From IMG/VR virus record IMGVR_UViG_3300031555_002748, positions 2,439-66,438 of that record: a stretch of 64,000 nt of DNA. One strand, given 5' to 3'. The first letter of the stretch is position 1; every line of letters starts with the position of its first letter. Shown piece by piece: positions 23,082 through 45,416 of the stretch. Made by a program: the position numbers and the translations under genes. The notes under the pieces were generated by a model. It was not told the DNA's origin. It saw nothing but the letters and a program-made list of their open reading frames with translations, and did not search any database. This DNA comes from a virus (taxonomy: Duplodnaviria; Caudoviricetes).

Positions 23082-23157
23082 TGGAGCTTCGGAACGGAAT
23101 CGAACCATCAACCTGCTGATTACAAATCAGCTGCTCTGCCAGTTGAGCTACCGAAGC
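23082..23157 (-). tRNA. trnT: tRNA-Thr(UGU)
   Basis: Cloverleaf GCTTCGG...CTGAT TTGTAA(T) CAG...TTCGATT...CCGAAGC TCCA; CCA encoded. Confidence 0.95.
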
Positions 23158-23236
23158 ATAATATATACTATTCCTCGCCGTATATAGGGGCGTATTTCAC
23201 AAGTTCTACTCTATTTCAAGCGATATACTTTATGCC

Positions 23237-23313
23237 TGGTACCCAGTACGTGATTCGAACACGCGAATGCCACCGTGAAAGGGTGGTGAGTTAAGCCGCT
23301 TCTCCAACTGGGC
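23237..23313 (-). tRNA. trnE: tRNA-Glu(UUC)
   Basis: GCCCAGT...CCACC CTTTCAC GGTGG...TTCGAAT...ACTGGGT ACCA. Confidence 0.95.
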
Positions 23314-23430
23314 ATTTATCTGAATCAAGATATCTAAGTATCCAGATTCAGAGTAGTTATTCAACATAACCCGTACTTCACTCCAACTAGAAGTGAATCT
23401 ATAGCTTCGTAACAACAAAACCATACCTTT

Positions 23431-23505
23431 TGGCTCCTCCAGTAAGACTCGAACTTACGACAACGCGGTTAACAGCCGCGGGCTCTACCGCTGAGCTATA
23501 GAGGA
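23431..23505 (-). tRNA. trnN: tRNA-Asn(GUU)
   Basis: TCCTCTA...CGCGG CTGTTAA CCGCG...TTCGAGT...TGGAGGA GCCA. Confidence 0.95.
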
Positions 23506-23669
23506 ATATTTAACACAATACTAATTGCCTTGGGTAGAGTTAGGTCAACAAAGTCTAATACCTATGCAATTTCAGTATTAGAAAAATCCTATTAGCTCTT
23601 TGGTGGGTTACCCCTATCAATTGCCTTAGAATACATTAACCTCAATATTCTTCGTTGTATTGTGTTTGT

Positions 23670-23746
23670 TGGCGACCCATAGCGGACTTGAACCGCTGAT
23701 CTCTTGCGTGACAGGCAAGCGTGTTAACCAACTGCACCAATGGGTC
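23670..23746 (-). tRNA. trnD: tRNA-Asp(GUC)
   Basis: GACCCAT...CTTGC CTGTCAC GCAAG...TTCAAGT...ATGGGTC GCCA. Confidence 0.95.
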
Positions 23747-23917
23747 AATTTGCTACATTTTTAAGGATAGATTTGCGTCCGTGAAATCTCTGATTATACC
23801 CCGTAGCTATCGCACACTTTCTCTCAACCTCGCCCCGCAGAGTCGGCTAAACCGATGGTTATAATTATCGTCAAGAGAGCTTTGACTATATGCTTTTCAC
23901 ATAAATCAGTTCCTTTA

Positions 23918-23993
23918 TGGTGGAGAATACAGGAGTCGAACCTGCGACATTCTGCTTGCAAGGCAGACACTCTGCCAACTGAGTTAATTCCCC
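23918..23993 (-). tRNA. trnA: tRNA-Ala(UGC)
   Basis: GGGGAAT/ATTCTCC acceptor stem with G3:U70; anticodon arm TCTGC CTTGCAA GCAGA; ACCA end. Confidence 0.95.
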
Positions 23994-23996
23994 AAA

Positions 23997-24073
23997 TGGG
24001 TGCAAAGATTGGATTCGAACCAATGATTTCCGACTTATGAGGACGGCGAGATGACCAACTTCTCTACTCTGCA
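23997..24073 (-). tRNA. trnM: tRNA with CAU anticodon (Met/fMet-like, atypical)
   Basis: TGCAGAG TA GAGA..TCTC G CCGTC CTCATAA GTCGG..ATTGG TTCGAAT CCAAT CTTTGCA C CCA. Confidence 0.85.
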
Positions 24074-24347
24074 ATGTAAAAGATAAAGATTTGTAGTTAA
24101 TCGTTATCTCTGTGTTTGTTGCCATTTAATTCGGCAAGAACCTGTAAATATAAAGCAAGCGCTAAAGCATTACAGTTATCTGTATTAAAATCAAACATCA
24201 TCTTTCACTCCTTAAATTATTTTGGCTGTTTAATACATTTACACCTGCACCAATTAAGAGTAAAAACTACAATGATGGTAGTTTAATTTTGGAGGGGAAC
24301 ATCCCCTCCGTAGGTGGACCTAGGGAATTTCACCCAGCCCATTGTGT

Positions 24348-41328: not shown

Positions 41329-41355
41329 TTTAAGCCTCCTATATTATATAATGTT

Positions 41356-41541
41356 TGGACAAAACAGTTATGTCGCTAGTTATGTCTGTGCGTCCTAGGA
41401 AAAACCTAGTGGACAAAACCTACGACATAACCTAGACATAACCAGAATATAAATATTAATATAAATACTAATATAAATATAAATATTTAATATTATGTCA
41501 AGACATAATATTTATAAAAGTTATGTCGCAATTAGTTTGTC
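41356..41541. repeat. Iteron-like GACA(T/A)AAC boxes in both orientations around an AATATA-repeat tract
   Basis: Boxes near 41358, 41367, 41379, 41412, 41424, 41435 and 41520; palindrome at 41489-41512. Confidence 0.75.
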
Positions 41542-41557
41542 TTGTATGCTCAGAGGC

Positions 41558-41586
41558 ATTATATCATATTAGGAAAGATTTGTCAA
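41558..41586 (-). promoter_or_regulatory. sigmaA-type promoter for the left arm
   Basis: TTGACA-17-TATAAT with extended TG. Confidence 0.85.
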
Positions 41587-41644
41587 ACGATTTTCGGTAG
41601 GGTTTTAAAATTTGTTGAAAAATTTTTGTGCAGCACAGAAAGAA

Positions 41645-41840
41645 CTAAATAAAAATATAATATTAAATGTATTATATGTTTATATTATATATTTATATAT
41701 TAATTATATATATTATATTATTATATATTAATAATTAATTATTATATATTTATAAATTATATATAGATATATATTAATTATATTATATCCCGTAATTATA
41801 AATACTCGTTAAATAAATTTAACTCGCATTTATAATTACT
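41645..41840. repeat. Almost pure A/T low-complexity tract ending in an inverted repeat
   Basis: About 140 nt of TATA/ATTA; GTAATTATAAAT...ATTTATAATTAC at 41792-41839. Confidence 0.85.
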
Positions 41841-42929
41841 TGTAAGTTTCGAGTTTTGTCACGAATAGTACCCAATAGATGTGACAGTATAGTGGTCGAA
41901 TTCGACTAGTTTGAAATAAATGCAAACTCTTGTCTGCGACGCTTCTGTGCTAACGTTCAGTCAGCTTCGCTTCCTTCGAACTTATAGCACGAGGGGCTCT
42001 GCCCCTATAACCAAAAAGAAGAATAGTGATGGATAAACTGAATGAGCCTAAAATAGCCGTTTTAAGCCGAGTAATGGTGTGGGGGTGAGAGTTTGGACTA
42101 GGTTGGAGTGCTTCGTGGCTTCTAGGGGCAAATTTGGGGCTCAGAATTGATTTTGGGATATTTGTATAGGTATAGGTGTTATATATAGGGATGTTTTACA
42201 TATAGTTTTATAATACCCCGGGGGTACTGTACGAAAAAGCAACTTCCTAGCGTTGCGTTTGCGAAAAGCAATCATATGTAGTTGCGTTTTCAAAAATGGC
42301 ATACCAAATGAACAAAAATAATCACATATTACAGGTTTTTCCTGGGATTGGTGTTTTAAACGTGTGCAAATGAACATAAATGATCATAAGCGTGTATAAA
42401 CGAAAATGGATAGGGATTTGCTGTGGGGATGTAGGCATAAATGAACAAATGTGAACAGAAATGTGCATTTTGTTGTAAACGGTTACAGGATTGGAAAGGG
42501 TTGTGGGTTTTTCGATATTGGGTCGGATGGGAGATGGGTAGGTTTTTACTAGGGTGAGTGGTTTTCTGGTAGAGAAGTGTGGTTTTATGGGTACGGATGG
42601 GCTGTTTGTATATATTTTTATATAATGTTTATGGGGAATAGGGTGGTAAAGGGTGATAAATTTGGTAAGTTACGTGGGGTTAGATGTAAAGAAAAAATGT
42701 CATTTATAGGCGTAATTTTAAGGAAAAAATGACAAAATTATTTTTCACAGTTTTATTGTTGATTTTGCAGTCAGTGTGTAAACAAACCTCGTACCATCAA
42801 AAGTGGGTTTTCGCTAGGTTTTATCAGTTTTTAATACCCCTCCGTATCCCAGATTTTTTAGAAGTGTAGAAAATTTATATTTTTCACACTTTTTTAAGTT
42901 TTTTGCAATTTTTTATGCTTGTTTTTTTG

Positions 42930-43459: not shown

Positions 43460-43473
43460 CTTAACAAAAGACA

Positions 43474-43509
43474 AGCCCCTAACCATTTCGGTTGGGGGCT
43501 TATTTTTTT
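43474..43509 (+). terminator. Intrinsic terminator
   Basis: AAGCCCCTAACC ATTTC GGTTGGGGGCTT ATTTTTTT. Confidence 0.85.
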
Positions 43510-43660
43510 GTCTTTATGAAAGCCCTAAAACTGAAAGGTTTTCGCCTATATAAAATATATAGGGCGAGAGCCTTTTTTGTATCCGTTTTGGATATAAGCC
43601 ATAAAGGGCTTTATGGTTGATTCAGCGACCATTGAAAAACTTAATAAAGGAGGTGCAGAA

Positions 43661-43852
43661 ATGCGAAAGATTTTTTGTACAAGATTTTATAACATAAAAG
43701 GCGACTGTTATAAAACCTACGAAAAACCCTATGATCCTAGATATGATCATGAAGGAACAACCTACGGAAACGGTTTCCGTCGTGTATCCTACATAAGAAC
43801 TGAAAGGGTTGAGGGCAGAAAAGTCTATACACCACAAGGAGGTCAACAATGA
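43661..43852 (+). CDS. Small hypothetical protein
   Basis: Likely start MRKIF after AAGGAGGT. Confidence 0.65.
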   Translation: MRKIFCTRFYNIKGDCYKTYEKPYDPRYDHEGTTYGNGFRRVSYIRTERVEGRKVYTPQGGQQ

Positions 43853-44016
43853 CAAAAGCAGAAGCCGTTTCATTTATGCAATTAAAGTCCGAACTTGAAC
43901 GAGAAATGGATAGATTCAAGGATACGGAAACTCGTGAAAGCATTTTGAAACAAATTAAAGCAAATGAGCCATTATTCATAAAGGCTCAAAAAGTTATCGC
44001 TCGTTACAACAAGTAA
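43849..44016 (+). CDS. 55-aa helical hypothetical protein
   Basis: RBS AAGGAGG, ATGA overlap with the upstream gene; MTKAEAVSFMQLKSELERE...VIARYNK*; below the track cutoff. Confidence 0.65.
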   Translation: MTKAEAVSFMQLKSELEREMDRFKDTETRESILKQIKANEPLFIKAQKVIARYNK

Positions 44017-44022
44017 CGGGCA

Positions 44023-44072
44023 AACCGTCTTACGGTGAAAGTCCGTAACTGATGAGCAATAGCGAAACGGTT
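44023..44072 (+). ncRNA. Hammerhead ribozyme, type III
   Basis: AACCGUC / stem I UUACGG-UGAAAGU-CCGUAA / CUGAUGA / stem II GC-AAUA-GC / GAAACGGUU. All core nucleotides are present; GUC cleavage site at 44027-44029. Confidence 0.9.
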
Positions 44073-44084
44073 CGTTGACGCACA

Positions 44085-44740
44085 ATAACATCACAAGGGT
44101 GATTGAGTGGTATTTTTTTCGTTTTGCTTTTTGCTCGTTAGCCATTAGGCTCTGATAGTGCCTTAAAACTTTCAGCGGTTTGGACAGCCGACCAGATAGG
44201 TATTTGACCGAAATGGCGAATAAATCAAGGGATACAGCACCCTTGACCATAAGTGTTTTTGCTTTATAGCAAATAGTGGAGATAAGCACCACTACCTTGT
44301 TGCAAAAAGTTGCAATAAAAGGGATAAGTTGTGGAAACAGCACCACGACCGAAAGATAATTGAACGCTTTAAGGTGTAGTCCTACGCCTTAACACCAACC
44401 GACCTCGTTATATGAAGAATATAACGGCGATCCGTAATAGTTGCTATGCACTCACTACTCTCATTTGGTAAGTGAGTTTTTCAAAATAAATGGCAACGAA
44501 TAGAGTTTAGGGGTGCAAATAGCCTAGTAATTTACAAACGAAACGGCATTTTAGTTAGACACAACGAGAGTTTGTAAATGAAAGGGAATAAGGAACAGTT
44601 TAGAGTTTGCTAAAACTTATTAAGGTGGGGATTTAGTTGGTCTACTTGACAGGGGTAGTTGGCAACCACTAATGAAACAACTTGACTTTCAATGGTCGTT
44701 CTGTAAGCAACCAGATAGCGACCACCATTACCAAAGGGCG
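44085..44740 (+). ncRNA. Large ornate structured ncRNA (ROOL/GOLLD-class candidate)
   Basis: About 650 nt without a credible ORF in an otherwise gene-dense arm; more than 12 helices found by eye; family not confirmed. Confidence 0.7.
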
Positions 44741-44779
44741 AAATAAAAATAAAAAACAAAATAGTCGGAGGACAAAATT

Positions 44780-45217
44780 ATGAAAACAATGAAACAACAA
44801 CTTATGGAACTTGCAACAAAGCATTTAGACTGTGAATTATGGGCTTGTGATGATGGCTGTAAAGTTCACATAATCAACCACAATGGAATTTGCGTCAAAT
44901 CTTATTCGTGGTATTGTACTGAAATTGAAGTCGATGATGGCGAAGATTATGGCGAATACAAAGACAGCATATACGGAATCGGCGAAGATAAAGAAGATAT
45001 ACTAATGGCTTATGCCGAAAACCACGAAAGCGTTGAACTCATTAGACCAAAACTCTATGAAGAGCATAAGCAACTCTTGTTAGATGCACTTAAAAATGCT
45101 CATAAAGCATACTGGCTTTGGAGGTCAAATTTCGTAACCCAAAGTGATATAGACTTTGAAGAATTGACCGATATTGCCGTTGCAATAGACAATTTTGTTA
45201 ATGAAAGGGAGGTGTAA
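44780..45217 (+). CDS. Acidic hypothetical protein
   Basis: 145 aa with GGAGG RBS. Confidence 0.7.
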   Translation: MKTMKQQLMELATKHLDCELWACDDGCKVHIINHNGICVKSYSWYCTEIEVDDGEDYGEYKDSIYGIGEDKEDILMAYAENHESVELIRPKLYEEHKQLLLDALKNAHKAYWLWRSNFVTQSDIDFEELTDIAVAIDNFVNEREV

Positions 45218-45218
45218 T

Positions 45219-45416
45219 ATGTTTAGACAATACGAAAACCCACACAAGTTGCAACAACAACTTGAAGAACTTGAAAGGCAATATGCCGAAAACCCAGAAG
45301 ATGCAGATTTATGCATTGAAATTGCAGCACTCAAAGACCGTATAAATTTTGCGTGGCAAGACGACGAGTATGACTGTGATTATATGCAAGAAAATTATCC
45401 AGAAGATTACGAATAA
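45219..45416 (+). CDS. Acidic hypothetical protein
   Basis: Likely start MFRQYENP. Confidence 0.65.
   Translation: MFRQYENPHKLQQQLEELERQYAENPEDADLCIEIAALKDRINFAWQDDEYDCDYMQENYPEDYE

Follow-up and report, generated by a model that had tools for sequence, protein, structure and literature searches.

Between the stop codon of the open reading frame (ORF) 43849-44016 and the ATG at 44780 of the 64,000-nucleotide stretch analysed here (the window, bases 2439-66438 of the 66,438-base IMG/VR virus record IMGVR_UViG_3300031555_002748, with a CheckV completeness estimate of 38%) lies a gap of 763 nucleotides (nt; 44017-44779) that carries, on the plus strand, a complete compact type III hammerhead ribozyme followed by a structured RNA module of about 589 nt. 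The module is a real, structured and conserved non-coding RNA that belongs to no known family and is preceded by a known kind of ribozyme, and its best placement is as a new class, narrow in distribution, among the large structured phage RNAs. We place at about 60% the probability of the full reading, in which the gap holds two RNA elements within an operon of the early type, in a large tailed phage of Bacillota type from the animal gut: a compact type III ribozyme and an autonomous, trans-acting RNA that resembles ROOL and GOLLD in kind. The anatomy of the two elements, their order on the sense strand and the pattern of their conservation are shown by the data below.

The module is delimited by its relatives. 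Parts of the region 43613-45217 occur in 21 public runs labelled as animal feces or bovine gut, four of which (X2, X5, X6 and X7) were compared with the window. X2 and X5 gave near-identical pieces; X6 and X7, which come from different studies, gave contigs of 9,076 and 20,387 nt that are about 94-95% identical to the window over the module and leave it into sequence unlike the window. The X6 contig holds the hammerhead (44023-44068), eight other letters and then 44147-44719, with 33 changed letters and four gaps over 573 nt, and, apart from one additional letter, its loose end follows the reference as far as 44729. The X7 contig holds 44142-44524 (383 nt with 21 changes and four gaps), a 12-letter swap for 44525-44581, and 44582-44730 (149 nt with three changes), so that the similarity to the window stops at 44729 and 44730, respectively. 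As this unit is kept across differing neighbourhoods, we take 44142-44730 as its limits. An earlier note, made by a model from the sequence alone, had drawn a large, ornate plus-strand RNA assigned to no family from 44085 to 44740; the RNA stands, supported by its structure-preserving relatives and the lack of a match in Rfam 15, and its start was placed about 57 nt too far upstream and its end 10 nt too far downstream. The ribozyme, eight letters before the module in X6, accompanies it in two of the three contexts, and over an invariant block of 134 nt (44191-44324) no difference is listed for either X6 or X7.

We rebuilt the variants by applying the listed differences to the reference and folded each of them. 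In the long-range architecture predicted for the module, a 5' domain is followed by a five-way junction that displays A-rich, AGCA-ended loops, by two hairpins that are conserved and two that vary, and by a 3' domain, likewise conserved; both end domains are prediction only (Table 1). A 7-bp helix (44251-57 with 44363-69) closes the five-way junction, which holds UUGCU/AGCAA (44259-72), a second AGCA-loop hairpin (44274-94, loop AGAUAAGCA), CCU/AGG with GUUGCAA/UUGCAAU (44295-322) and a third AGCA-loop hairpin (44328-49, loop AAACAGCA). No listed change breaks any of the AGCA hairpins, the two small hairpins between them, the closing helix (44251-69) or the hairpins at 44370-91 and 44406-26, and the pair 44330-44347 is U.G in the reference, C-G in X6 and U-A in X7. 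Further downstream, the outer helix 44440-47/44490-97 is invariant and the inner hairpin 44450-56/44471-77 is rebuilt in X6 and X7 with other pairs and small indels and still folds; in X7, the sequence that replaces 44525-44581, and with it the hairpin 44530-79, is a 12-letter stem capped by GAAA. The terminal hairpin may be closed by UGGUCGU/GCGACCA or, alternatively, by AAUGGUCGU/ACCACCAUU. Taken together, the variation among the three variants is suggestive of a preserved structure, in a sense that is not statistical.

All ten helices listed in the earlier note are present, at or within one base of the places given there, as judged from the sequence, from inverted repeats (I2, I4, I5, I11 and I14) and from the minimum free energy (MFE) fold. 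The three AGCA-ended loops that it had described on different stems were found within 125 nt, namely ATACAGCA at 44232-39 on TCAAGGG/CCCTTGA, AGATAAGCA at 44280-88 on TAGTGG/CCACTA and AAACAGCA at 44335-42 on GTTGTGG/CCACGAC, and a fourth loop, TAAGCAAC, sits on top of the last hairpin in the MFE fold. The hairpins with loops AUACAGCA, AGAUAAGCA and AAACAGCA have a GG/CC closure in each case and stems that otherwise differ. Single hairpins with an AGCA-ended loop are common: the two strands of the window have nine, where 200 dinucleotide shuffles average 7.2. A cluster of three within 200 nt, however, occurred in none of these shuffles. The plus strand of 44017-44779 folds at -212.7 kcal/mol (z -4.62, with none of 20 shuffles equal or better) and the minus strand at -181.7 kcal/mol (z -2.64). 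The G-U pairs favour the plus strand, as had been proposed: several U.G pairs lie in helices predicted for all three variants, 44330-44347 among them and others read by hand off the common predicted helices, and these would become C.A mismatches if the minus strand were the RNA.

No plus-strand ORF of 40 or more amino acids lies between 44017 and 44779. The minus-strand ORF 43972-44346 (124 aa) was rejected as a gene, with no PHROGs match and only a chance-level Pfam match; it overlaps the hammerhead, and X6 swaps 78 nt inside it for eight, a difference that is not a multiple of three and breaks the frame. Short motifs recur within the module: ACC occurs 15 times (4.9 expected) and GACC six times (0.9 expected), and by eye ACCAGATAG is found at 44191 and 44710 and GACCGAAA at 44205 and 44347. 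CCATT stands at both module ends (44142 and 44725), with AATGG partners at 44212 and 44691, which would let these segments form two local closing helices or swap partners in a long-range pairing.

The hammerhead, which the earlier note did not notice, has the full anatomy of its type. Stem III (AACCGU/ACGGUU) pairs 44023-28 with 44067-72, stem I (UUACGG/CCGUAA) pairs 44030-35 with 44043-48 under a 7-nt loop, UGAAAGU, and stem II consists of two pairs, GC/GC, with the loop AAUA (44056-63). The core is formed by CUGAUGA (44049-55) and GAAA (44064-67), the core pairs A15.1-U16.1 (U44028-A44067) and G10.1-C11.1 (G44056-C44063) are present, and the NUH cleavage triplet is GUC at 44027-29, 5' of stem I, with the cut predicted after C44029. 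This three-helix fold, in which stem III is open and the other two stems are capped, is exactly the MFE structure of the 52 nt, and a search of 44005-44095 (91 nt) with RF00008 matched the full model (1-54) with 31.9 bits and an E-value of 9.3e-6. A scan of a viral contig collection for the hammerhead core with a GC/GC stem II gave 116 matches in 114 stretches, and 79 of the matches share the type III architecture. Filtering for a 6-bp stem I, a 7-nt loop, U at 16.1 and H at 17 retained 76, of which 41 are distinct and were aligned with the window copy. In these 42 sequences, 89% of the cells are paired and both partners vary in ten of the 15 pairs; the covariation score of 0.50 (0.11 in shuffled alignments) was reached by 0 of 500 shuffles. 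The filter itself guarantees a paired stem I; stem III was unfiltered, and pairing of its inner pairs stands at 100% and 90%. Stem I and its loop in the window are identical to those of one of the matched loci (L032).

Passages of Perreault et al. (2011; PMC3088659) report hammerheads that flank genes in phages and prophages and often have a stem II of only 2 bp, which makes the window ribozyme a known kind of element. It shares with the compact type III hammerheads of phages the core, the GUC site, the 6-bp stem I with a 7-nt loop and the 2-bp stem II, and, like most of them, it is intergenic and on the sense strand. Most compact hammerheads in our scan lie in short intergenic gaps in sense orientation, with the next ORF of at least 50 aa usually 5-100 nt downstream; in the window, by contrast, the gap holds a structured RNA, this distance is 711 nt, and a downstream strand is complementary to the ribozyme core. 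In 36 of the 76 compact hammerheads (loci L021-L134), a Shine-Dalgarno (SD)-like motif follows GAAAC within 14 nt, so that the 3' strand of stem III overlaps the ribosome-binding site of the next gene; in this class, cleavage might unmask that site. Other RNAs accompany the class: a twister-P5 ribozyme (L080:8445-8501, minus strand) lies about 500 nt from a compact hammerhead, and gut-2 RNA motifs occur in three hammerhead-bearing phage loci (L060:5550-5597, L065:6761-6808 and L079:4303-4350).

The linker between the two elements contains an inner hairpin (AUCAC/GUGAU) and a U-rich tract in which TTTTTGC occurs three times (44114-35). Its strand 44119-44141 is complementary to the hammerhead core 44049-44070 over 21 pairs, four of them G.U (inverted repeat I6). 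The MFE of 44022-44146 is -40 kcal/mol (z -3.74; two of 200 shuffles as good), and the predicted 3' cleavage product, 44030-44146 (117 nt), has a z-score of -4.94 (0 of 200 shuffles as good). In X6, eight other letters stand in place of 44069-44146, and the 78 nt that separate ribozyme and module here are a peculiarity of this phage; as X6 lacks the core-complementary strand, the strand is not essential.

Table 1. Positions in the window of the RNA elements of the gap, their predicted parts and the adjoining spacer.
Feature	Position	Strand	Basis or remark
Type III hammerhead ribozyme (complete)	44022-44073	+	Sequence anatomy, RF00008, MFE, covariation
Linker	44074-44141	+	Hairpin, U-rich tract, core-complementary strand; phage-specific
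Structured RNA module, ~589 nt	44142-44730	+	Kept in X6 and X7 contigs with unlike flanks
AGCA-loop hairpin 1, loop AUACAGCA	44225-44246	+	Lowest pair probability 0.77 (three variants); unchanged in X6 and X7
Five-way junction domain, closed by AAGUGUU/AACGCUU	44251-44369	+	Helices predicted in all three variants
Hairpin UAAGGUGUA/UACGCCUUA	44370-44391	+	Inverted repeat I5; lowest pair probability 0.74
Hairpin CGUUAUAU/AUAUAACG	44406-44426	+	Inverted repeat I11; lowest pair probability 0.78
Outer helix GUUGCUAU/AUGGCAAC and inner variable hairpin	44440-44497	+	Outer 44440-47/44490-97 invariant
Long variable hairpin AUUUACAAAC/GUUUGUAAAU	44530-44579	+	Inverted repeat I4
Terminal hairpin, loop UAAGCAAC	44691-44729	+	MFE, inverted repeat I14
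A-rich spacer	44731-44779	+	Ribosome-binding site GGAGG (44767-71) before the ATG of ORF 44780-45217

No known family accounts for the module. A search with all 4227 families of Rfam 15 (Infernal) gave nothing in the gap at the gathering score, and at E-values up to 10 on 43900-44900 only two chance-level matches (E 1.6 and 8.6). ROOL (RF03087), whose model features six multistem junctions as well as three pseudoknots, had no match at E-values up to 10 on 43900-44900, in the window or in the whole record; when the ROOL model was run alone on the record the controls matched nowhere either, so the weight of this negative rests on the all-family scans. GOLLD (RF02032) likewise had no match in 43900-44900, the window or the whole phage record, and, as its model finds a copy in a relative (G029, see below), the search itself works. 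OLE, raiA and the group I and II introns gave no match either, provided that they are part of the Rfam 15 library, which was not checked by name. Searches with the ROOL and GOLLD models and for homologues had been proposed in the earlier note, which foretold for a new class no match together with covarying homologues; the former found nothing in the phage record, and the relatives do keep the module while the flanks change and the variation preserves structure. ARAGORN found no tRNA or tmRNA gene in 43500-45300, and the only tandem repeats in the region are two low-complexity runs, the TTTTTGC copies of the linker and AAATAA in the A-rich spacer. No published description of this RNA was found in the literature, searched by topic and not by sequence. 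Among more specific identities, we rejected a CsrA-type sponge (GGA not enriched in a hand count), a ToxI-like RNA or CRISPR-repeat mimic (no tandem repeats of such kind in the region) and a circular RNA (no second ribozyme downstream). Mimicry of tRNA anticodon loops was also considered, the stems UUGCAA and UUUGUAA matching the anticodon loops of the phage tRNA-Ala and tRNA-Thr, and was set aside: X6 has an altered form of the second hairpin and X7 has lost it, and such short matches are expected by chance.

The closest known counterparts are ROOL and GOLLD, large phage RNAs of unknown function according to passages of two reports (PMC5737381; 10.1101/2024.12.08.627333), the second of which shows that both build RNA-only cages. 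As described in passages of the former, ROOL averages 581 nt, has many hairpins and multistem junctions, occurs in phages and was first seen in cow rumen data. The module is like it in size (about 589 nt against a mean of 581 nt), in its hairpins, in its phage host and in its gut origin (runs from animal feces or bovine gut), and unlike it in having no match to the model, in lying about 20 kb from the phage tRNA array, whereas ROOL is often near tRNAs, in its very narrow distribution, and in its hammerhead, which those passages do not mention with ROOL. GOLLD resembles the module as a large, ornate and sporadic RNA of phages and prophages, and the relative G029 carries a GOLLD-like match; it differs in having no match in this phage and a different place in the genome, and a covariance model of the module (R1, 44222-44395) gives no match in G029. 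Theta (HDV-like) ribozymes next to phage tRNAs, as presented in PMC10879173, offer a parallel in that a small self-cleaving ribozyme defines one end of a non-coding RNA in gut phages. They belong to another ribozyme class, their partner is a tRNA and the other side is trimmed, and nothing found here connects the module with recoding. Large, highly structured RNAs of bacteria and phages are rare, and the study of nearly all their classes has opened up new biochemistry; a further class, unrelated to ROOL and GOLLD but from phages of the same kind, would provide an independent case for the function of such RNAs, and this one brings its own end-defining ribozyme and natural minimal variants, with the linker present or absent and a hairpin or a tetraloop stem.

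From the elements described above, we infer that the ribozyme cleaves and that the module acts in trans. The hammerhead would cut the polycistronic transcript between C44029 and U44030, 13 nt past the stop codon of the upstream ORF, and would thereby define the 5' end of the module, with a 3' product that starts with the paired stem I. In this phage, 44119-44141 could then pair with the spent core 44049-44070, which would either close the 5' end or limit cleavage. The module would work in trans as a folded scaffold on which the three or four AGCA loops may serve as repeated docking sites for a multivalent partner protein or RNA, possibly its own copies. By analogy with ROOL and GOLLD, which passages of 10.1101/2024.12.08.627333 describe as self-assembling via kissing loops and A-minor contacts, a scaffold of that manner is the version we favour.

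Several observations weigh against this reading, beginning with the ribozyme and the fold and ending with the distribution of the module. The hammerhead does not reach the gathering score of RF00008 (31.9 against 48.5 bits), a curated score and not a structural feature, and was not reported by three wider Rfam scans, window-wide and over 1 kb; none of the compact-class hammerheads in ten other loci reaches the gathering score either, so that the Rfam threshold passes over a compact class of phage hammerheads that is well supported. Fold prediction indicates that in this phage the competing helix of the linker can mask the hammerhead core, and in X7 no hammerhead is present in the 30 letters seen upstream of the module. 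The core 44147-44719 alone folds modestly (z -2.66 on the plus and -1.51 on the minus strand, 30 shuffles). Some listed changes cost pairs: those at 44531-32 in X6 remove two foot pairs of the hairpin 44530-79, G>A at 44190 breaks a predicted terminal pair, and the GCCATT/AATGGC helix of the earlier note, present in the window, is lost in X6, where other letters replace 44069-44146. The comparison covers three variants that are about 94-95% identical, and the difference table gives 30 of the 33 changes in X6; the covariation, one pair and two swapped hairpins, is thin and, with only three near-identical variants, does not permit a test of the R-scape type. No terminator or 3' processing site was called after the module, so that the discrete RNA is a presumed one.

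As to distribution, the module was found in none of 29 related phage records by BLAST and in none of 30 by the covariance model R1 (positive control on the phage's own record, 222.8 bits), 18 of the 30 being at least 90% complete; its absence from these records makes it dispensable to the group. Scans of three collections by pattern did not find it either. In the viral contig collection, a two-loop pattern gave nine stretches, all coding sequence or repeats by eye, and a looser three-loop pattern gave none; the three-loop pattern gave at least 114 stretches in metagenome contigs, with no homologue among the matches listed (nhmmer), and in genome contigs the strict pattern gave none and the loose one 26, none of them homologous. 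The gap had no match in a distant-mode blastn search of 50,697 GenBank phage records, and only its hammerhead part was matched by nhmmer in 133 mostly hammerhead-bearing loci (L002-L134). With a compact hammerhead in one of the 30 related records, ribozyme and module are both accessory. The closest complete relative, G001, has no hammerhead, no AGCACC hairpins and no nhmmer match, and its early genes are not conserved with the window; it carries a DUF3800-I RNA (L135:6650-6773, plus strand, 55.6 bits) that abuts a tRNA gene in a region with four tRNAs. In G029, whose portal is 55% identical, a GOLLD match over the full model (L324:33-392, minus strand, 97.8 bits, below the 150-bit cut-off) directly follows an array of seven tRNAs. 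Structured RNAs are thus cargo that phages of this group can exchange.

A special case of the trans-acting reading, in which the AGCA loops form a decoy that titrates a host RNA-binding protein or a defence nuclease, is unlikely. Sponge RNAs such as CsrB show repeated loop motifs. The similar loops on different stems would fit such a role, as would the sporadic, accessory distribution within an operon of small genes of unknown function; on the other hand, none of the known binding motifs fits, a hand count gave no enrichment of GGA triplets, there are no ToxI-like tandem repeats and no Rfam antitoxin or sRNA match, and the roughly 400 nt outside the loops are equally conserved, which exceeds the needs of a simple sponge.

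That the module is instead a long cis-acting leader, controlling translation, stability or read-through of the following gene, strikes us as distinctly unlikely. Such a leader would be in keeping with the lack of a terminator after the module, with the SD-like motifs close behind 36 of the 76 ribozymes of the compact class, and with the presence of an SD and an ATG close by in all contexts, 50 nt after 44730 in the window and with GGAGG within about 20 of the 30 letters shown downstream in X6 and X7 (in X7 with an ATG too). The downstream sequence differs between the window and X6/X7 even though the module is kept, however, no riboswitch, T-box or leader family matches, and an RNA of about 590 nt with an invariant block of 134 nt far exceeds the known leaders of small phage genes.

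We see little chance that the module has no function of its own, as a decaying remnant or a selfish mobile cassette that folds by chance. Its narrow distribution, the sharpness of its borders, with a CCATT at either end and in differing contexts, and the modest z-score of its core could all be accommodated in this way. An identity of about 94-95% with an invariant block of 134 nt, next to flanks for which no alignment at 80% is possible, argues otherwise, and the compensated hairpin changes speak for selection on structure.

An extension of the favoured scaffold would make the module a third giant phage RNA class beside GOLLD and ROOL, the first with a hammerhead-cut 5' end, assembling itself into a scaffold or cage where loop-anticodon contacts would hold phage tRNAs or some other repeated ligand. 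The junction loops read ACAGCA, UAAGCA and ACAGCA, and ACA and GCA are codons of the phage tRNA-Thr(UGU) and tRNA-Ala(UGC). We hold this to be very improbable as a whole; if true, a cage that docks tRNAs would give large phage RNAs a testable cargo.

Least probable is that the region acts as DNA, for instance as an origin of replication, a site for packaging or a set of iterons (GGA..AGCACC) bound by a protein, since the three direct copies of a 12-13 nt motif (spacing 49 and 54 nt) that would suggest it each lie in a hairpin loop with a differing stem, so that hairpin formation is what is kept, while the U.G pairs, the GAAA cap and the stronger plus-strand fold point to one strand as RNA, the same-strand ribozyme marks that strand as meant for transcription, the module region has a GC content of 40% and no AT-rich unwinding tract, and the AT-rich, symmetric region 41329-42140 is the better candidate for an origin or promoter.

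The genomic setting is that of a tailed phage whose portal has its nearest isolates, at about 30% identity, among large tailed phages of Bacillota; 39 related loci were found in the viral contig collection, with portal identities of 52-91%. The genes up to about 41.3 kb lie on the minus strand and include portal, terminase-like, tail and exonuclease genes and six tRNAs, while small genes of unknown function occupy the plus strand from about 42.5 kb. Of 20 neighbouring plus-strand ORFs, four have matches among PHROGs whose function is unknown and one a Pfam match below threshold, none of them informative, and the flanking proteins 44780-45217 and 43613-43852 have no relatives in the viral contig collection. 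A strong terminator-like hairpin of 12 pairs followed by a T run lies at 43473-43501 (plus strand), about 520 nt upstream of the hammerhead, and no plus-strand promoter-like site was called between it and the ribozyme.

Elsewhere in the window, the six phage tRNAs (Thr-UGU, Glu-UUC, Asn-GUU, Asp-GUC, Ala-UGC and Met-CAU; 23082-24073, minus strand) adjoin a DUF3800-XI RNA match at 24294-24341 (minus strand; 45.6 bits, cut-off 37.8), next to which PhoH-like and ClpP-like ORFs are found and no DUF3800 protein among the four ORFs tested. The region 41329-42140, between the diverging minus- and plus-strand gene blocks, spans 812 nt without ORFs of 45 or more amino acids at 29% GC. It folds far better than its shuffles on both strands (z -6.4 and -8.3) and contains a perfect TTGACA-17-TATAAT promoter-like site at 41586-41558 (minus strand), and is a candidate control region or origin.

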